The notes under the pieces: generated by a model
Seen by the model: only the letters and a program-made list of their open reading frames with translations
What the model was told of the DNA's origin: nothing
The model's database searches: none
Made by a program: the position numbers and the translations under genes
Shown: positions 7,662 through 49,498 of the stretch, piece after piece
Layout: the number at the start of each line of letters is the position of its first letter
Position numbering within the stretch: the stretch's first letter is position 1
Source of the DNA: a virus
Taxonomy: Duplodnaviria; Caudoviricetes
Reading direction: 5' to 3' (one strand)
Length of the DNA: 58,994 nt
IMG/VR virus record: IMGVR_UViG_3300045778_000157
Coordinates: 1-58,994 of that record

Positions 7662-8410
7662 ATCGTGTTCTCCAACAGGTTCACCCCGATGCGGGTGACG
7701 ACGGCCCCGGCGGACAGGAGGTTCACGCCCTCCGCCATGCCGGACGGAAGGCCGCTTATCGCGGCGGCGAGGGCCAGCGAGTCGGACGGCTGCGCGATGC
7801 CGAAGGCGTAGGCCGGAGCCTCTGCCGAAGCCAGGCATTGCGCGACAAGAGCCGCCAGAGACACGCTCTGAGCGTAGAGGTCTTCAATGACGGACACGGC
7901 GGCGTTGGCGAGGCTTCCTGCGGCCGCGACGGCATCGGAAAGATCTTGGATGCCATTGAGGACGGCCTCCGTGGTTATGGGCAGTTGCTGGAGGTCGTAG
8001 ACGTCCTGCCCGACGAGCGAATCCACCGAGTCGGAACCCACGTCGTTCAAGCCGCCGTCGTCCACGACCATGACGGTGATTTTGTAGGGGATCTCGTAGG
8101 CTTTTTCCCACTCCGGCTCGAACTTGGTGACGATGACGGAGAACGACAGCCCGCCCCACAGGAGGGGAACGGCGGCGCCGGCCTTCGCCATGGCCTCGAT
8201 GGCGAGGGCGCGGTCCAACGCCTCGCCCCCCCTGAAGCGGCCCTCCCACGACACGTCGGAGCGGTCGAAGCCCATCGCGTCGGCCACGCGCAAGCCGCCG
8301 ATGAGTTGGCTCTTCGACACCTTCTGTTCGCCAGAGAACGGCCCGATCTTGGCGGGGATCTCGAAGTCGCGGAAGGCGAAGCTGCCGAGGATGAGGGTGA
8401 AGTCCGACAT
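7658..8410 (-). CDS. Tail tube initiator (GpU-like)
   Basis: 250 aa following the tape measure; LGSFAFRDFEIP...WEGRF...PLLWG pattern. Confidence 0.65.
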   Translation of the reverse strand: MSDFTLILGSFAFRDFEIPAKIGPFSGEQKVSKSQLIGGLRVADAMGFDRSDVSWEGRFRGGEALDRALAIEAMAKAGAAVPLLWGGLSFSVIVTKFEPEWEKAYEIPYKITVMVVDDGGLNDVGSDSVDSLVGQDVYDLQQLPITTEAVLNGIQDLSDAVAAAGSLANAAVSVIEDLYAQSVSLAALVAQCLASAEAPAYAFGIAQPSDSLALAAAISGLPSGMAEGVNLLSAGAVVTRIGVNLLENTI

Positions 8411-8413
8411 GGC

Positions 8414-10765
8414 TTATCCCGTCGCGTAGGCTGGAGAAGAGAAGTAGCCTTGCCCGTCCGAGCGGCCCGGGTTCGTCGGGTTCGCGACGTGGTTGCCCAT
8501 CGCCGAGGCGACCTTGCCGACGATGGCGCCCTTGTCGAGGTAGACGTTGCCCTGGAGCACGGCCTGTTTCGCGGGCGGCGGCGACGGAAGGACGACCTTC
8601 ATGCCGGACGCCGCCGCGCCGACAGCCGACTTGAACGCGGACATGAGGCTCTCTGCGGCCCTCGCGCCGACGTCGCCCCACCCCTTCGAGAACCATCCGT
8701 CGGACGCCGCCTTGGCCGCGTCCGCGCCGTCCTTCTTCGCCTGTGGGATGACGATGGCGGCGGCGGCTTTGGCCTTGGCGACGGCGCGGTCCTTCTCCTG
8801 CTGCGCGGCCAGCCTGTCCATTTCGGCCTGGTGCGCGTGCTGGTAGCCGGCGAGCCCCTTCTCGCCGGTCGGCTGCACCGCGCCGACCTTCACAAGGCCG
8901 CTCATGATCCCGTAGAGCGCGCCGGACGCCAGAGCGCCCGCGCCGAGTCCGAGAAGGACTGGAGGCGTCGCCGCGCCGATGGTCGGAAGGACCCCGAGCG
9001 TCGTCGGGGCGACGAGCGGCGCCTTCTTCAGCAGATTGTCGTTCGCGGCGTTGGGCAGGCCCTTGAGCGGGTTGATTCCGCCCGCCTTGAGAAGCGCGGC
9101 GGTGTTGGCGTCGGTCGCCAGCGTGTTGGCGGACGTCGCCGCGACGTTGGGCGCGTCCTTGCCGAACAGCGCGCCGAAGCCCTTGTAGAGCGCGACGAGT
9201 CCCACCCCTCCGACCGCGGTGGCCGCCGCAGTTTCCTTGTTGTCGAGGCCCATGCCCTTCGAGACCGACGCGATGGTCGTCAGGCCGGCGACGAGCCACC
9301 CCGCCGGCCCGAGCATGGCCAGGAGCGCGCTGGAGACGGCGATGGCGCCGAGCGCGACGAGGCCAGCGCCGATCCCGACGATGGTCTTGGCGATCTTCTC
9401 CACCTTCTCCGGGTTCTTGATCGCGTATTGCGACATGTCGCGCAGCGTCTCGGCGAGTGGCTTCAGCACCTTGTCGATCATCGGCTCAACGAGGGTGAGT
9501 CCGACGGAGGCCTGCAAGTCCTCCCACTTCTTTGAAACGCGGTCGCGCCACACCTGGGCGTCCTTCTCGCGCAGCCTGTCGGTGGCGTCTCCGGCTCCGG
9601 CGATGTTCTGCGCGCCGCGGTTCAACATGCGGTTGCCGTTCGGCAACAGGCCTTCGTCGAAGCCCTTCCACTGCGACTTCTGCGCGCCCCACGCGTCGGC
9701 GATGGCCTTCGCCATCTGCTCAGCGTCCTGGATGTTGACGGCGACGTGGTGCGCCTTTCCGTTCTTGCCGACGACGTCTATTCCGTCGCGCGAAAGCTTG
9801 TCGCGGAAGTCGTTCATCCACTTGGTCGGATCGTGCCTGAAAACCTCCGCCTCGAACGCCGACCCGGTCACGAAGTCCCTCTTTGCCTTCCCCGTGTCGG
9901 GATCGATCAGGCGGTTTTCGTGCTTCTGTATCCCCATGCGCTCCATAGCCGCCGCCATGTCCATGTTCGACGTGCGGCCGGCGTAGATGTTCTTGTACAT
10001 CATCGCAAGCGTGTTGCCCGCGCTGGTTCCCATGCCGCCGTTGGCCCACTCCATAAGGTTGCTGGCGACGAAGCTCTGGCCGTTCTTGTCGACGTCCCAA
10101 CCCTGCGCCGCCGCGCCCGCGCCCTTGACCACGGCCAGGAGCCTCATGCCGGAGGCGTTGTCGCCGAGCGCGGAAACGGTCTTGCGATACTTGTCCGCCA
10201 GCATCGCCGACTGCTCGGCGTCGCCGCCCGTAACGAGGTCGAAGGCGCGGGCCGCAGCCGCGATGTTCTTGCGGTCGAGAACCTTGTCGTTCTTGCCCTT
10301 TTCCGGCTTCACGAACGACATGACGTTGGAAAGGTTGTTGAACGCCGGCAGGAGGCGCGCAGACTCCGGCATGTCCTGAAACACCTTGTAGAGGTCTTTC
10401 AGCGTCTCGATGTTGCCCTCGAACGTCGAGTTCATGTTGCGTCCGGCCTCGGAATAGGCGGCGGTCTTGGCGATGGCCATGTCCATCGCCGCCGAGGCCT
10501 TCGGAAGCTGGTTCTCAAGCTGGTTCTGCACGTGGGCCAGCTTCTCGCCGTGCTCCTCGATGTGGCCCATCACCTTCAGCGTCTCGACGCCGAGCGCGAT
10601 CGATGCCGCGCCGCCGATCATGAGGGCCTTGTGGAACGAGGCGAAGCCCTTCTCCACCTCGCCCTGGAGGCGTTTGATGCCGAGGAGGTCGGCCGCGATG
10701 ACGGCGAGGCCTTTGGAGGCCCCGTTCGCCAGCGTGATCTCCATGCCGATTTCATAGACGGACAT
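8414..10765 (-). CDS. Tape measure protein
   Basis: 783 aa, Ala/Gly-rich and helical with hydrophobic segments; downstream of the tail chaperones. Confidence 0.85.
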   Translation of the reverse strand: MSVYEIGMEITLANGASKGLAVIAADLLGIKRLQGEVEKGFASFHKALMIGGAASIALGVETLKVMGHIEEHGEKLAHVQNQLENQLPKASAAMDMAIAKTAAYSEAGRNMNSTFEGNIETLKDLYKVFQDMPESARLLPAFNNLSNVMSFVKPEKGKNDKVLDRKNIAAAARAFDLVTGGDAEQSAMLADKYRKTVSALGDNASGMRLLAVVKGAGAAAQGWDVDKNGQSFVASNLMEWANGGMGTSAGNTLAMMYKNIYAGRTSNMDMAAAMERMGIQKHENRLIDPDTGKAKRDFVTGSAFEAEVFRHDPTKWMNDFRDKLSRDGIDVVGKNGKAHHVAVNIQDAEQMAKAIADAWGAQKSQWKGFDEGLLPNGNRMLNRGAQNIAGAGDATDRLREKDAQVWRDRVSKKWEDLQASVGLTLVEPMIDKVLKPLAETLRDMSQYAIKNPEKVEKIAKTIVGIGAGLVALGAIAVSSALLAMLGPAGWLVAGLTTIASVSKGMGLDNKETAAATAVGGVGLVALYKGFGALFGKDAPNVAATSANTLATDANTAALLKAGGINPLKGLPNAANDNLLKKAPLVAPTTLGVLPTIGAATPPVLLGLGAGALASGALYGIMSGLVKVGAVQPTGEKGLAGYQHAHQAEMDRLAAQQEKDRAVAKAKAAAAIVIPQAKKDGADAAKAASDGWFSKGWGDVGARAAESLMSAFKSAVGAAASGMKVVLPSPPPAKQAVLQGNVYLDKGAIVGKVASAMGNHVANPTNPGRSDGQGYFSSPAYATG

Positions 10766-44626: not shown

Positions 44627-44718
44627 CGAACCCCGAGAACTTTGTTAACGATTCTTGGATAGGGTGAGATTTCGCCCTCTCGCAATGAGGTTGGTGTGGG
44701 AAGGTTCCCAAGAACCGC

Positions 44719-44747
44719 TTGACGCGTTCTTCAAATCGATCCATAAC
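44719..44747 (+). promoter_or_regulatory. Sigma70-like promoter
   Basis: TTGACG-N17-CATAAC. Confidence 0.6.
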
Positions 44748-44792
44748 AACAGTTATGAAACCGCTCCAAGGCGGTTTAGAAGGGAGCATCAC

Positions 44793-46082
44793 ATGAAAAT
44801 CCTGTCGATGAAGGCCGAGAACTTCAAGCGTTTGCGGGCCGTGGAGATCACGCCCAAGTCCGCCGTGGTGGACGTGACGGGCCGCAACGCCCAGGGCAAG
44901 ACCTCGGTGCTGGACGCCATCCTCGCCGCGCTCGGCGGAGAGGGCGAGATCCAGCGCAAGCCGATCCGCGCCGGGGAGGAACAGGCCGTCATCCGCCTCG
45001 ACCTCGGCGACGTCGTGGTCACCCGCACCTTCAAGGCGAAGGAGGACGGCGACTTCACCACCTCGCTGAAGGTCGACGCGACCAACGGCGCCCGCTTCAC
45101 CTCGCCGCAGCACCTGCTGGACAGCCTCGTGGGGCCGCTGTCGTTCGACCCCCTCGCCTTCACCCGCCTCTCCGCCAAGGAACAGGCGGACGGCCTCAAG
45201 CGGCTCGTCAAGGGCTTCGACTTCGCCGCCGCCGACAAGGCGGACAAGGACGACTACGCCAAGCGCACCGACCTCAACCGCGAGGCGAAGCGGCTGCGCT
45301 CGTCCTATTCCTCCATCGTCGTTCCGGCGGACGCTCCCGCCGAGGCGGTTGACGAATCCGCGCTCGTCGCCGAACTCGAAGGCGCGGCCAAGTTCAACGG
45401 CGAACTGGACAAGCGCAAGGCGCGCCGCGTCGAGGCCAACAACCAGATCCGCGCATGGCGCCAGGACGCCGGAAACTTCAACGAGGAAGCCGACAACCTC
45501 CGCATCCGCATCGCCGAACTCGAAGAAGCGGCGAACGCCAACCGCAAGGCGGCGGACGACCTCCAAGACAAGCTGAACGCCGCCGCGCCGCTGCCGGAGG
45601 CGGTGGACGTGTCGCGGGTGGCGCAGATACTCAACGGCGCCCGCGCCGCCAACGCGGCCTTCGCCAAGTCGCAGGAGCGCGGCGAACTCGGCGCACAGGC
45701 CCACAGGGCCGAGACGGACGCGGAAGCCCTGACCAGGGCCATGGAGTCCCGCGCCAAGGCCAAGGCCGAGGCGATCAAGGCGGCGAAGCTGCCGGTGGAA
45801 GGCCTGTCGTTCGACGCGGACGGACTCACTCTCAACGGACTGCCGTTCGAACAGGCCTCCGGCGCCGAACAGCTGCGCGCCTCCATCGCCATCGCGGCCG
45901 CGCAGAACTCCAGGCTGCGGGTGCTGCGCGTGAAGGACGGGAGCCTGTTGGACGCGGACGGCAAGCGCGTCCTCATGCAGTTCGCCCAGGCGAACGACTG
46001 GCAGATCTGGATCGAATCGGTGGACGCGTCCGGCAAGATCGGCTTCGTCATCGAGGACGGCGCCGTGGCTTCGGCGAACTGA
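44793..46082 (+). CDS. SMC/Rad50-like ABC ATPase
   Basis: MKILSMKAENFK, GRNAQGKTS, coiled coil, QASGAE, KDGSLLD. Confidence 0.88.
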   Translation: MKILSMKAENFKRLRAVEITPKSAVVDVTGRNAQGKTSVLDAILAALGGEGEIQRKPIRAGEEQAVIRLDLGDVVVTRTFKAKEDGDFTTSLKVDATNGARFTSPQHLLDSLVGPLSFDPLAFTRLSAKEQADGLKRLVKGFDFAAADKADKDDYAKRTDLNREAKRLRSSYSSIVVPADAPAEAVDESALVAELEGAAKFNGELDKRKARRVEANNQIRAWRQDAGNFNEEADNLRIRIAELEEAANANRKAADDLQDKLNAAAPLPEAVDVSRVAQILNGARAANAAFAKSQERGELGAQAHRAETDAEALTRAMESRAKAKAEAIKAAKLPVEGLSFDADGLTLNGLPFEQASGAEQLRASIAIAAAQNSRLRVLRVKDGSLLDADGKRVLMQFAQANDWQIWIESVDASGKIGFVIEDGAVASAN

Positions 46083-46093
46083 TGGAGGGGAGC

Positions 46094-46348
46094 ATGAAGA
46101 GCGATCTCGTCGATCTGGAACTGGCGGTCCACCACGAAACCGAAAAGGCCGTCCACCACGAAACCGAAAAGGCCGTCCTCGTCTCGGAGACGGGCGACAG
46201 GGCCAAGGCCGTGTGGCTCCCGCTTCAGGCGTGTGAGGTGGAATACAAGCCGATCACCGGCTGCATGGTCGGAGGGCGCAAGCGTCCGTTCCGCCTTGCC
46301 ACGGTGACCATGCGCGAGTCCCTCGCCGTGGAAAAGGGACTCGCATAA
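46094..46348 (+). CDS. Conserved phage hypothetical protein with a 24-bp tandem duplication
   Basis: (VHHETEKA)x2...AVWLPL...AVEKGLA. Confidence 0.7.
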   Translation: MKSDLVDLELAVHHETEKAVHHETEKAVLVSETGDRAKAVWLPLQACEVEYKPITGCMVGGRKRPFRLATVTMRESLAVEKGLA

Positions 46349-46349
46349 A

Positions 46350-46412
46350 GGCAGAAACCTAGGGGGAGCAATCCCCCGATGGTCGCGCCGTCACGCGGCG
46401 CCCGTCGAGGCC
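46350..46412 (+). ncRNA. Type II hammerhead-like element, degenerate copy
   Basis: GAAACC...GGUC, stem I, CCGUCGA-GGCC; core deviates at U4, A6 and pair 10.1-11.1. Confidence 0.4.
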
Positions 46413-46445
46413 AAGCACGTCGGACACAAGCAAGGGGAGCCTATC

Positions 46446-46961
46446 ATGGGCATGTCGGGACTTCAGAACTGCAAACAGGGCGTCTACAACCTCTCCGAAG
46501 GCTCGGAGTGGGCGGACGTCGCGCTGGACGACGCCGCCAACGCCATCGCCGCCAAGTGGAAGGAGATCCACGACTTCGGCGGACTGGACGACGACGAGCG
46601 GCGCATCATGGTCCGCTTCGCCGAACTGTTCCACATGCCGCAGCACGTGTGGGGCCGCATCGAATGGCACTACGAGTTCGACGCGGGCGACTTCCTGTTC
46701 GCCGTGCCGCTCAACGACCGCACCCGCGACGTGACGTTCGCCGACGTCTCCCGCGTCGAGGTGCTGGACGATGAAGGGGAGACCATCGGCTACGTGGCCG
46801 GCGACCTGTTCCGCGCCGTCCAGGCCGCTCCGAGCGGCTGCGACAGGCTCAAGGAACTCGCCTCGTCCCTGCTGACCTTCCACAACACGGGATTCGACAG
46901 CGGGAAAGAGGCCGGCGCGAAGGATCTGCGTTGTAAGCTGCGGAGCCTCCTGGATATCTAG
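46446..46961 (+). CDS. Hypothetical protein
   Basis: 171-aa ORF with RBS. Confidence 0.7.
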   Translation: MGMSGLQNCKQGVYNLSEGSEWADVALDDAANAIAAKWKEIHDFGGLDDDERRIMVRFAELFHMPQHVWGRIEWHYEFDAGDFLFAVPLNDRTRDVTFADVSRVEVLDDEGETIGYVAGDLFRAVQAAPSGCDRLKELASSLLTFHNTGFDSGKEAGAKDLRCKLRSLLDI

Positions 46962-46987
46962 CTATCCGCAACATCGATGGCGCGAAA

Positions 46988-47016
46988 CCGAGGCGGGGTC
47001 GTCCCGCCTCTTTTTA
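46988..47016 (+). terminator. Intrinsic terminator
   Basis: gaggcggg-gtcgt-cccgcctc-TTTTT. Confidence 0.8.
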
Positions 47017-47050
47017 TTCAAGAATCGTTGTCATTGTCCTTAAATAACTG

Positions 47051-47079
47051 TTGACGGTTTCTCCGATCAGATTCATAAA
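47051..47079 (+). promoter_or_regulatory. Sigma70-like promoter
   Basis: TTGACG-N17-CATAAA. Confidence 0.6.
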
Positions 47080-47122
47080 TGGACCGTCGCTGCCAAGAGC
47101 GACGCAGCCAAAGGGAACCCAC

Positions 47123-47359
47123 ATGTATCTCAACGCCACCACCAACCGCTTCGGACTGCCCGTGCCGGAAGGCATGGAATACTCCAAGCTGCACCCCGCC
47201 GACCGCTGCATCCGAGACGCGGACGGCGCGACCGGCCGCGTCCGCGCCCTCGTCTGGCAGGACACCGGCGACATTTCCTTCCTCGTCTACTTCGACAACG
47301 GCGAGAATGCCGTGTGCGGATACGACGCGGTTTCCTCCACCCTCGCGCACAGGAACTGA
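47123..47359 (+). CDS. Small hypothetical protein
   Basis: 78 aa from MYLNAT with RBS agggaa. Confidence 0.6.
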   Translation: MYLNATTNRFGLPVPEGMEYSKLHPADRCIRDADGATGRVRALVWQDTGDISFLVYFDNGENAVCGYDAVSSTLAHRN

Positions 47360-47365
47360 GCCGCC

Positions 47366-48124
47366 ATGAGCAAGCCCGACCTCTTCTTCGACATTGAGAC
47401 CGGCCCGACCGACAACCAGGCCATCATCGACGCGGCCATCGCCGCCATCGAGGCGCCCGCCAACTTCAAGGACGCCGACAAGATCGCCGCCTACAAGGCG
47501 GACAAGGCCGCGTCCGTCATCGACAAGCTCGGCCTGGACGCGACCACGGGCCGCATCGTCTCGCTCGGCTGGGCGGTGAACGCGGACGAGCCTACGGCCA
47601 TCCGCTGCGCTTGCCACCGCGACGAACTGTTCCACGCGGTCGACGGCGCCCAGGTGCTGAGGAACCCGAAGTTCGCCACCACCGATTCGGCGGAGAAGGC
47701 CAACCTCGAACGCTTCTTCCGCCTCGTCGCCGAGCGTCTCGACCGCGACGACGTGGACTCCGACGAGCCGCGCATCGTTGGCCACTACGTCGGCTCGTTC
47801 GACGTCAAGTTCGTGGCGCAGCGCGCCATGATCCTCGGCGCGGCCCTCCCCGCGTGGTGGCCGATGGCCCCGAAGCCGTGGGGCAACGAGATCCTGGACA
47901 CCCGCCTCGTCTGGACGGGCGGCAACAACCAGGAGCATATGAAGCTTGACAAGCTATGCCGCGCCCTCGGCCTCCCCGGCAAGGGCGACGTCGACGGCTC
48001 CGACGTGGCGCGCCTGTTCGCCGAGCGCAAGTTCGACGAGATCCTCGCCTACAACCGAGACGACGTCGCCAAGGTGCAAGCCGTCGTCGCCCGCTTCCGC
48101 ATCGCCTACGGCGACCGCATCTGA
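47366..48124 (+). CDS. DnaQ/RNase H-like 3'-5' exonuclease (DEDDy)
   Basis: FDIET, GHYVGSFD, KLDKLC, YNRDD. Confidence 0.85.
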   Translation: MSKPDLFFDIETGPTDNQAIIDAAIAAIEAPANFKDADKIAAYKADKAASVIDKLGLDATTGRIVSLGWAVNADEPTAIRCACHRDELFHAVDGAQVLRNPKFATTDSAEKANLERFFRLVAERLDRDDVDSDEPRIVGHYVGSFDVKFVAQRAMILGAALPAWWPMAPKPWGNEILDTRLVWTGGNNQEHMKLDKLCRALGLPGKGDVDGSDVARLFAERKFDEILAYNRDDVAKVQAVVARFRIAYGDRI

Positions 48125-48138
48125 CAGGGGTTTCAGCC

Positions 48139-48870
48139 ATGTTCACCAAGGAACAGATCAAGGAACTCCAGGCGCCGTTGAGCCGCCAGAGCGTCAAGAT
48201 CCGCAGCCAGTCGGGCCGCACCCTGTCCTACATCGAAGGATGGCATGCCATCGCCGAGGCCAACAGGATCTTCGGCTTCGAGAACTGGGACCGCTCCACC
48301 GACGAACTGCGCCTCGTCTCCGAGCGCGCCCGCAAGATCGGCAAGGACGCCAAGGACGGATGGAGCGTCAGCTACATCGCCAAGGTCCGCATCACCGTCA
48401 TCGCGGGGGAGCGCGTCGTCGTCCGCGACGGCACGGGCAGCGGCCACGGCATCGACGTGGACTGCGGCCTGGCGCACGAAAGCGCGATCAAGGAAGCCGA
48501 GACGGACGCCATGAAAAGGGCGTTGATGACTTTTGGCAACCCGTTCGGCTTGGCCCTTTACGACAAGGAACAGAGCGACGTCTCGAACGAGTCCACCGCG
48601 CAGCGTCAGGAGCGCGAACAGGCCGCTGAGGCCTACGTGAAGGGCGCGGCCTCGTCCGTCGCCGCCTTCCGCGCCATCCCGCCGCTGAAGGCGTGGTGGG
48701 ACGCCCAGGGGGCCGAGCGCGTCCGCCTCGGCATCCTGAAGGGAACCCCCCACTTCGCCGTCCTGTGGGACGCGTTCGTGGCGAAGGGGTCGGCCCTGAA
48801 GGCCGCTGCCGAAGCCGCGCCCGCCGAGCCGGACGAATACGCCCAGCAGGCGCCGGAAGAGACGTTCTAA
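48139..48870 (+). CDS. Rad52/Rad22-family single-strand annealing protein
   Basis: LSYIEGW...ANRIFGFENW...GTGSG...KEAETDAMKRALMTFGNPFGLALY. Confidence 0.92.
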   Translation: MFTKEQIKELQAPLSRQSVKIRSQSGRTLSYIEGWHAIAEANRIFGFENWDRSTDELRLVSERARKIGKDAKDGWSVSYIAKVRITVIAGERVVVRDGTGSGHGIDVDCGLAHESAIKEAETDAMKRALMTFGNPFGLALYDKEQSDVSNESTAQRQEREQAAEAYVKGAASSVAAFRAIPPLKAWWDAQGAERVRLGILKGTPHFAVLWDAFVAKGSALKAAAEAAPAEPDEYAQQAPEETF

Positions 48871-48872
48871 CA

Positions 48873-48935
48873 GGCCGAAACCTAGGGGGATTCTTCCCCC
48901 GATGGTCTTGCCGTCACGCGGCAACCGACGAGGCC
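48873..48935 (+). ncRNA. Type II hammerhead ribozyme-like element (U4C core variant)
   Basis: GGCC-GAAACC-[stem III]-GGUC-[stem I]-CCGACGA-GGCC. Confidence 0.55.
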
Positions 48936-48966
48936 GTCGGAATTCCACAACACAAGGAAGCTAGTC

Positions 48967-49434
48967 ATGTCGCTCAACAAGTTCACCGCCATCGGCAACC
49001 TCGGGCGCGACCCCGAGGTCCGCAACCTCAACAACGGGAAGAAGGTCGTGTCCTTCAGCCTCGCCACCACCGACAGCTGGAAGGACAAGGCCTCGGGCGA
49101 GTGGAAGAACCACACCGAGTGGCACAACGTCGTGATCTTCAACGAGAACCTCGGCGGCGTCGCAGAGAGGTTCCTGAAGAAGGGGTCCAAGGCCTACATC
49201 GAAGGCAAGCTGAAGACCCGCAAGTTCACCGACAAGAACGGCGCCGAGCGCAGCGTCGTCGAGATCGTCATGGAGGCCTTCAACGGCGCCATCGAACTGC
49301 TGGACAAGAAGGAGGGCGGCTCGGCCCCCGCGCAGCACTCCGACGCGCCCGCCGACGACCGCTCCGCGCCCGCGCAGAAGGCGCAGCCGCAGTCCACGGG
49401 CCGCCTGGCGTCCAACGACGACATCCCGTTCTGA
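48967..49434 (+). CDS. ssb: Single-stranded DNA-binding protein
   Basis: IGNLGRDPE, TEWHNVV, C-terminal DDIPF. Confidence 0.97.
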   Translation: MSLNKFTAIGNLGRDPEVRNLNNGKKVVSFSLATTDSWKDKASGEWKNHTEWHNVVIFNENLGGVAERFLKKGSKAYIEGKLKTRKFTDKNGAERSVVEIVMEAFNGAIELLDKKEGGSAPAQHSDAPADDRSAPAQKAQPQSTGRLASNDDIPF

Positions 49435-49498
49435 CGGCCTAGCTTAAGCAACCGGAGGGGGAGCGATCCCCCTCTTCTCGATCCAAGGTAAAACGCCG

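Follow-up and report, generated by a model that had tools for sequence, protein, structure and literature searches.

Paired type II hammerhead homologues with variant cores around a recombination gene block in a phage record

Background

Type II hammerhead ribozymes have been described in prophages, where they flank single genes or small groups of them and where tandem arrays cleave (Perreault 2011, PMC3088659). The purpose of these gene-flanking elements and the meaning of variants in their catalytic core are not settled. Here, we analysed two related elements of a linear virus record of IMG/VR (IMGVR_UViG_3300045778_000157), the 58,994 bases of which are called the window below and the completeness of which is estimated at about 66%. 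A preliminary description, made from the sequence alone, had presented these elements as type II hammerhead-like RNAs with compensatory stems between genes of a recombination operon. They are located on the + strand at positions 46350..46412 (copy 1) and 48873..48935 (copy 2). Their arrangement is of a known kind, that of phage type II hammerheads flanking gene blocks, and the elements are variants of it: their cores carry U4C, the pseudoknot is absent, the stem III module is conserved and a hairpin joins the core to the tail. On balance, and with limited assurance, we favour reading copy 2 as a slow or partly gated ribozyme and copy 1 as essentially dead.

Like the bacterial and prophage type II elements described so far (PMC3088659; RF02276), both copies have an open stem II, capped stems I and III, the GAAA strand, an A15.1-U16.1 pair and C17. 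Like the prophage elements of the former report, they are intergenic in a phage operon, with several copies around genes or short blocks. They differ from the type II consensus published there by C at position 4, to which copy 1 adds A6U and a mismatch at 10.1-11.1, by the lack of the pseudoknot between loop I and the 3' tail, and by a long stem III with a near-invariant internal-loop module.

Both core substitutions have counterparts in the literature. A viroid variant with the same U4C change (Ambros and Flores 1998, as cited in PMC3088659) is reported to have lost much of its activity in vitro while keeping enough in vivo for infectivity; this variant replicates in plants, whereas the window elements would be carried by phage mRNA and U4C is found in several phage contigs. 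The Bcep176 hammerhead, intergenic and from a phage, has a substitution (A6C) at the position of the A6U of copy 1 and is described as being of low activity, cleavage by an A6C phage hammerhead being given as below 0.1 per min in the same report (PMC3088659). A larger defect is expected for copy 1, because A6U is joined there by U4C and by a broken 10.1-11.1 pair. Low activity has also been reported for single mutants in the CUGA turn (Roberts 2023, PMC9901934). Three type II hammerheads of Desulfovibrio vulgaris, located near phage-like genes and found active in vivo by cyPhyRNA-seq (PMC8782182), are similar in type and setting. Neither the stem III module nor phage hammerheads with U4C were found described in a limited literature search; the subgroup or such variants may already figure in the supplementary material of Perreault 2011 (Dataset S1, Figures S6 and S7).

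Results

Layout, sequence and predicted fold of the two elements

The two elements are paralogous, intergenic and 63 bases long, with three stems. Each of them starts 2-3 nt past a TAA stop codon and ends 31-33 nt ahead of the next ATG (46446 for copy 1 and 48967 for copy 2), in line with the position between stop and start codons reported for them before. Copy 2 is a type II hammerhead whose core carries U4C. In it, the 3' strand of stem II (GGCC, 48873-48876) precedes GAAA (48877-48880) and stem III (48880-48906), C17 is at 48907, and stem I (48908-48924) is followed by the core CCGACGA (48925-48931) and the 5' strand of stem II (48932-48935). Stem III reads CC-UA-GGGGGA(UUCU)UCCCCC-GAU-GG, then UC; stem I reads UUGCCG(UCACG)CGGCAA, and GGCC comes after the core. 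Cleavage is predicted between 48907 and 48908.

Copy 1, homologous to type II hammerheads and damaged in its core, has the same succession of parts: 3' strand of stem II (GGCA, 46350-46353), GAAA (46354-46357), stem III (46357-46383), C17 (46384), stem I (46385-46401), core CCGUCGA (46402-46408) and 5' strand of stem II (46409-46412). Identity between both copies reaches 83% over 110 nt and mostly lies within the 63-nt element. Copy 1 differs from copy 2 by GGCA instead of GGCC, by its stem III loop (GCAA), by its core and by stem I (GCGCCG/CGGCGC), which holds two compensatory pairs relative to copy 2. The sequences and stems are thus exactly those of the preliminary description; the compensatory pairs and the different stem III loop of copy 1 were confirmed, and the residues named as cleavage sites, C46384 and C48907, are the C17 positions of the two sequences.

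The type II layout, in which stems I and III are capped and stem II is left open, was found in both copies with helices in register, as aligned to the covariance model R1 described below. GAAA (G12 A13 A14), the A15.1-U16.1 pair and C17 are present in both. The G10.1-C11.1 pair is G-C in copy 2 and is replaced by a G-A mismatch in copy 1 in the same alignment. The canonical core C3 U4 G5 A6 N7 G8 A9 is found in neither copy, copy 2 carrying U4C and copy 1 U4C and A6U; the caveats raised earlier on these positions were therefore correct. A 25-base pattern made of GAAA, stem III and GGUC occurs twice in the window versus not once in 100 dinucleotide shuffles. RNAfold gave z-scores of -3.0 and -2.5 for the 63-mers. 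For the copy 2 63-mer, the minimum free energy (MFE) fold is the three-way junction of a hammerhead, and in that of copy 1 the strand CCGUC, which contains A6U, pairs with GAUGG at the base of stem III, so that the junction is lost.

Covariance among relatives in other contigs

An alignment (A2) was built from 21 relatives with a canonical core, found on other viral contigs and on two cyanobacterial genome contigs, the window being excluded. The covariance model derived from it (R1) was then run over the whole window with filters off. Copy 2 was retrieved at 73.1 bits (E 4.9e-20, 48871-48938), and each of the 20 pairs of the model is formed in it; copy 1 scored 63.3 bits (E 5.1e-17, 46348-46415). 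These E-values are rough because of a shortened calibration. The next-best match in the 58,994 bases scored 11.5 bits. The type II hammerhead-like topology claimed for the two elements is hence upheld by a model that finds both of them and nothing else in the window.

Within A2, 95.7% of the cells of paired columns form pairs, versus 70.6% in shuffles and 35-45% when the 3' partners were slid, and cells with double changes amount to 100 versus 28.6 in shuffles. A U-G pair closes stem I in 14 of the 21 sequences, and such G-U pairs point to a structure acting at the RNA level on the + strand. Searching with R1 across 55 sources yielded 88 matches, 85 of which were distinct (A3). Pairing extends to 94.8% of cells in these 85 sequences, versus 67.2% in shuffles, with 386 double-change cells versus 123, figures that lean towards the model structure since this alignment was fitted to the model. 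Every helix of the family shows covariation. Sixty-three of the 85 are full type II elements; GAAA is present in all of them and GUC at the cleavage site in 60.

Elements often occur as arrays, with eight R1 matches in about 3.7 kb of contig L058 (contigs are designated here by L numbers), five in L173, four in L003 and three in L049. The eight type II hammerheads of L058 (401-4142, - strand) are separated from their neighbours by one small open reading frame (ORF) each, without Pfam family. In the provirus of L006, a type III hammerhead scoring 38 bits with RF00008, under the threshold of 48.5, adjoins two type II elements of this subgroup (8015-8071, 8283-8350, 9885-9952).

The stem III module

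Scanning viral contigs for the stem III pattern returned eight stretches, and a looser scan 39. Together with the genome loci and the window, 37 distinct pattern matches were obtained, and GAAA stands ahead of 33 of them. When a metagenome scan (at least 120 stretches) is included, the distinct pattern matches number at least 137, of which at least 59 have GAAA ahead. In most of the GAAA-preceded matches, UC and a stem I hairpin that covaries come next, then a canonical CUGANGA and a strand able to pair with the four bases ahead of GAAA; these matches are canonical type II hammerheads. The matches without GAAA served as a negative control: a helix call was obtained for 18 of the 78 among those listed, and none of these 18 has a CUGANGA-like heptamer.

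Elements first looking core-less proved to be type I hammerheads, which have the same stem III, with CUGANGA and the stem II hairpin upstream. The stem III module, CCUAGGGG...CCCCGAUGG, is near-invariant, with a UA/GAU internal loop, and is found in L003-L173 as well as in both window copies. It is common to type I and type II permutations (for instance at L043:747-832, L046:9684-9735, L096:1515-1594 and L154:5135-5195). Its internal loop presumably resembles the 11-nt GAAA tetraloop receptor, a likeness on paper only. As judged from its sequences, the family is a phage-borne hammerhead subgroup defined by this stem III module. One further element, L007:2308-2362, is the one also found in L028 (Leptolyngbya sp. 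PCC 7375). It has GAAA, the stem III module and UC, with the CUGANGA strand found on neither side; it appears to be a truncated element, directly upstream of a gene.

The scan of genome contigs returned 26 stretches, among which L018, L033 and L028 only were relatives. Most of the other rows corresponded to an unrelated hairpin just upstream of rplN and the few remaining ones to chance matches, and these were rejected. The rplN hairpin (L011-L017, L020, L021, L023-L025, L027, L029-L031, L034, L035) is conserved right before the rplN ribosome-binding site of Rhodobacterales and other alphaproteobacteria. It is composed of GAAACC, GGGGG, a loop, CCCCC and GGUC, with two variable bases after GAAACC and three after CCCCC; it is not a hammerhead, its match to the pattern being due to chance, and it may serve the ribosomal protein operon as a leader or in processing.

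Orientation of the elements always agrees with that of the flanking genes. No gene association was found: 55 of the 60 genes downstream of relatives are without Pfam family, and SSB is encoded by none of the 60. A blastn search of copy 2 and its leader against the phage collection gave no match. Likewise, no R1 match at E<=1 was obtained at 80 loci encoding Rad52 relatives (46-72% identity), indicating that the elements do not travel with the recombinase.

Searches with Rfam models

With Rfam at gathering thresholds, no match was returned in the whole window, and at E<=10 the region 46200-49100 gave four unrelated weak matches and no hammerhead. RF02276, RF00163 and RF00008 were also run on the record, with no match at either element. 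The cmscan check advised in the preliminary description therefore did not bring out a hammerhead on either copy. This negative is uninformative regarding the window copies, because canonical relatives fall below the threshold too: the gathering score of RF02276 is 37 bits, and the best canonical relatives reached 29.8, 28.1 and 20.6 bits with this model, which gave no match on the L058 region. Such misses are likely explained by the long stem III and the absent pseudoknot.

Variation of the core

The core reads CUGANGA in 52 of the 63 full type II elements and UUGAN(N)AA, the known U3/A8 covariation, in six. CCGANGA, with U4C, was found in four, namely copy 2, two elements of L049 and one of L050 (also in L054), and CCGUCGA, combining U4C and A6U, in copy 1 alone. 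A type I relative in L106 has CCGACGA as well, which brings to four the further U4C elements found outside the window (two in L049, one in L050 and the type I element of L106). For L049, L050/L054 and L106, similarity to the window is confined to the element, and the neighbour genes encode unrelated hypothetical proteins. U4C is the only single-position core change seen in more than one of the 63 elements, and its carriers keep all helices; A6U was seen in one of 63, copy 1. Between the two U4C paralogues of L049, U-A replaces C-G at 15.2-16.2 and the stem I sequences differ.

Helices stay intact in the three unrelated contig lineages where U4C recurs, so that this substitution looks tolerated, and the compensatory changes by which U4C paralogues differ suggest that selection on the fold continued after it arose. 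A viral scan aimed at U4C cores returned chance matches, with no R1 match among the 80 loci listed.

Two other variations of these regions were observed. In the core UUGAAYAA of L049:6142-6216, L115:290-354, L145:102-166 and L165:2222-2286, the U3/A8 covariation is accompanied by one additional base at position 7. In the type I relative at L047:651-714, GAAA is preceded by GGCA, so that 10.1-11.1 is a C-A mismatch; this A at 11.1 is shared by copy 1.

A competing hairpin between core and tail

When the copy 2 sequence is extended downstream, its MFE fold contains a hairpin at 48925..48940 (+ strand) in which CCGACG (core positions 3-8) pairs, across the loop AGGC, with CGUCGG, formed by the last stem II base and a GUCGG tail. 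Six perfect base pairs result. The GUCGG tail of copy 1 (46419..46423, + strand) lies 6 nt past stem II and pairs with the core with one U-U mismatch. This agrees with the pairing between a downstream CGUCGG and the core strand put forward in the preliminary description. A 5-bp core-to-tail complement within 16 nt of stem II exists in 7 of 36 distinct members, and shuffled tails gave a mean of 1.48, a value of 7 being reached in 1 of 2000 shuffles; the competition proposed there thus gains support (7 of 36 members versus 1.5 expected). CUGACG and its tail complement occur in L003, L038 and L116, and a 5-bp version in one element of L048 and two of L173. Opposite position 4, the tail has A in canonical relatives, with U in the core, and G in the window, with C in the core. 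In L008, L038, L116, both L173 elements and copy 2, the predicted stability of the hairpin fold exceeds that of the hammerhead-constrained fold by 2-4.4 kcal/mol.

Regarding the pseudoknot between loop I and the 3' tail, the longest Watson-Crick complement was of 3 bp in copy 1 and 2 bp in copy 2, no better than with shuffled tails. A loop I-tail complement of at least 4 bp was found in 10 of 36 family members.

Gene context

All genes considered here are on the + strand, in the order SbcC-like ATPase, small gene, copy 1, ORF171, ORF96, exonuclease, Rad52, copy 2 and ssb. The SbcC-like ATPase gene (44655-46082) matches phrog_1499 over its full length. Upstream of copy 1 lies a small gene (46079..46348, with an approximate start) which corresponds to the 3' part of ORF 45455-46348 and the TAA stop of which (46346-46348) is 1 nt ahead of the element. 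The match of this ORF to phrog_8389 is limited to residues 212-296, and its real start is placed near 46080 since the overlapping ORF 44655-46082 matches phrog_1499 full-length. Downstream of copy 1, ORF171 (46446..46961, 171 aa) was left without assigned family, as Pfam and PHROG searches returned no match. It is followed by ORF96 (47079-47369), taken from the ORF list, and by a 3'-5' exonuclease gene (47366..48124; Pfam DNA_pol_B_exo2, 7e-18; phrog_403). The Rad52-family single-strand annealing recombinase (47956..48870, TAA at 48868-48870; Pfam Rad52_Rad22, 3.9e-36) precedes copy 2, and its true start is probably farther downstream, as ORF 47956-48870 overlaps the exonuclease gene. The ssb gene (48967..49434; Pfam SSB 1.4e-31, phrog_44 1.4e-41) is downstream of copy 2. 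According to this gene order, the two elements bracket a four-gene block of about 2.5 kb (ORF171, ORF96, exonuclease and Rad52 recombinase).

Long ORFs in different frames overlap at two places, between 44655-46082 and 45455-46348 and between the start of the Rad52 ORF and the end of the exonuclease gene. The PHROG matches indicate that the real downstream genes would begin later than the longest ORFs imply.

RNA libraries

Part of the stretch was held by seven public runs, five of which are RNA libraries, and four RNA runs were examined as contigs. Contigs identical to the window and obtained from RNA libraries cover 48919-49438 (run X1, depth 12.2) and 48986-49431 (run X6), essentially the ssb segment; others cover parts of the operon. 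In these four libraries, no contig covers or bridges either predicted cleavage site and copy 1 is uncovered; being contigs, they are silent on cleavage. Support from this source is weak because contigs cannot show RNA ends, and these contigs show only that the phage sequence was present, as DNA may be in the libraries.

Discussion

The features gathered here are compatible with a slow or partly gated ribozyme in copy 2 and an essentially dead one in copy 1, and this is the reading to which we give slightly better than even credence. U4C being the sole core deviation of copy 2, slow self-cleavage would be expected after C48907. It would separate the recombinase and ssb messages of a polycistronic operon: the released ssb message would have a 5'-OH at its start, where the stem I hairpin and then the core-to-tail hairpin would stand, and the recombinase message would be left ending in the stem III hairpin. 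The core-to-tail hairpin would compete with stem II and either limit cleavage or make it irreversible. As the tail is transcribed last, the ribozyme could fold first, and the hairpin might then cap cleavage or lock the 3' product. Copy 1, in which U4C, A6U and the G-A mismatch at 10.1-11.1 are combined, is probably catalytically dead or nearly so and would persist as a structured leader.

Several observations weigh against this assignment of partial activity. Position 4 is part of the uridine turn, where changes are reported to lower activity, and U4C could recur as a transition that is common while copies decay. RF02276 (Hammerhead_II) gave no match at E<=10 on either copy. The hairpin fold predicted for copy 2 is 2.3 kcal/mol more stable than its hammerhead-constrained fold, and the covariation between position 4 and the tail amounts to a single event, seen in the window alone. 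Finally, the absence of the loop I-tail pseudoknot means that the usual tertiary stabiliser, which might offset a core defect, is not visible.

Some of these points are shared with another explanation, to which we attribute a lower though appreciable probability: both copies might descend from hammerheads and be catalytically dead, retained as structured intergenic RNA or still awaiting erosion. In the absence of self-cleavage, stem III would act as a 3' protective hairpin of the upstream message, and stem I with the core-to-tail hairpin as a structured 5' leader affecting stability or translation of the downstream gene. The presence of U4C in both copies, the two additional lesions of copy 1, the low activity that mutations of the CUGA turn produce and the missing loop I-tail pseudoknot would all fit such relics, as would the MFE folds, which are of a non-hammerhead type once the tail is included and, for the copy 1 63-mer, remove the three-way junction through CCGUC/GAUGG pairing. 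Dead copies are harder to reconcile with the state of copy 2, in which GAAA, G5, G8, A9, A15.1-U16.1, C17 and every other core position are kept. They also do not readily account for the recurrence of U4C in three unrelated lineages with intact covarying helices, no other single position being changed in more than one of 63 elements, or for a viroid U4C variant reported to be functional in vivo. Moreover, we know of no non-catalytic role for a complete hammerhead fold.

A more elaborate version of the partly gated ribozyme can be offered tentatively, and we would rather doubt it as a whole. The core strand may have two uses, in catalysis as the uridine-turn strand and, as one of the arms, in a conserved 'off' hairpin (CNGACG, loop AGNC, CGUCNG) made with the tail right after stem II, position 4 covarying with the tail base. 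U4C would then be no decay and rather a selected setting which slows catalysis and strengthens the off state, so that a partial, tunable processing sets the ratio of recombinase to SSB messages, and the stem III module, common to both permutations and lacking the usual pseudoknot, would be a new peripheral element making weakened cores workable.

It is improbable that both copies are fully competent under native conditions, with the stem III module or host conditions compensating for the core changes and both ends of the gene block being cut efficiently. All helices are kept in both elements, including the two compensatory pairs of stem I, arrays of active hammerheads flanking gene blocks have been reported from prophages and the relatives themselves show arrays. 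Such competence is hardly expected of copy 1, which unites U4C, A6U and the 10.1-11.1 G-A mismatch, when A6C alone is reported to reduce a phage hammerhead to less than 0.1 per min and A6U was seen in a single element of 63, copy 1 itself. That the elements are unrelated to hammerheads, through chance resemblance or as a repeat acting at the DNA level, for instance in recombination or protein binding, would agree with the lack of Rfam hammerhead matches and is nevertheless very improbable in view of the E-values of about 1e-17 to 1e-20 obtained with a model of canonical relatives, the two pattern occurrences versus none in shuffles, the G-U pairs and compensatory changes which keep helices that make sense only in + strand RNA, and an orientation always shared with the flanking genes.

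Conclusion

Current Rfam hammerhead models miss the whole subgroup defined by the stem III module. With its relatives, the locus forms a compact test set in which U4C recurs with helices kept, copy 1, with its two extra lesions, may provide an internal negative control and a competing hairpin contains a base varying in step with position 4. Should copy 2 cleave, U4C would be a recurrent working variant outside viroids, and the core-to-tail hairpin would be a candidate for a built-in limiter of ribozyme processing in phage operons.

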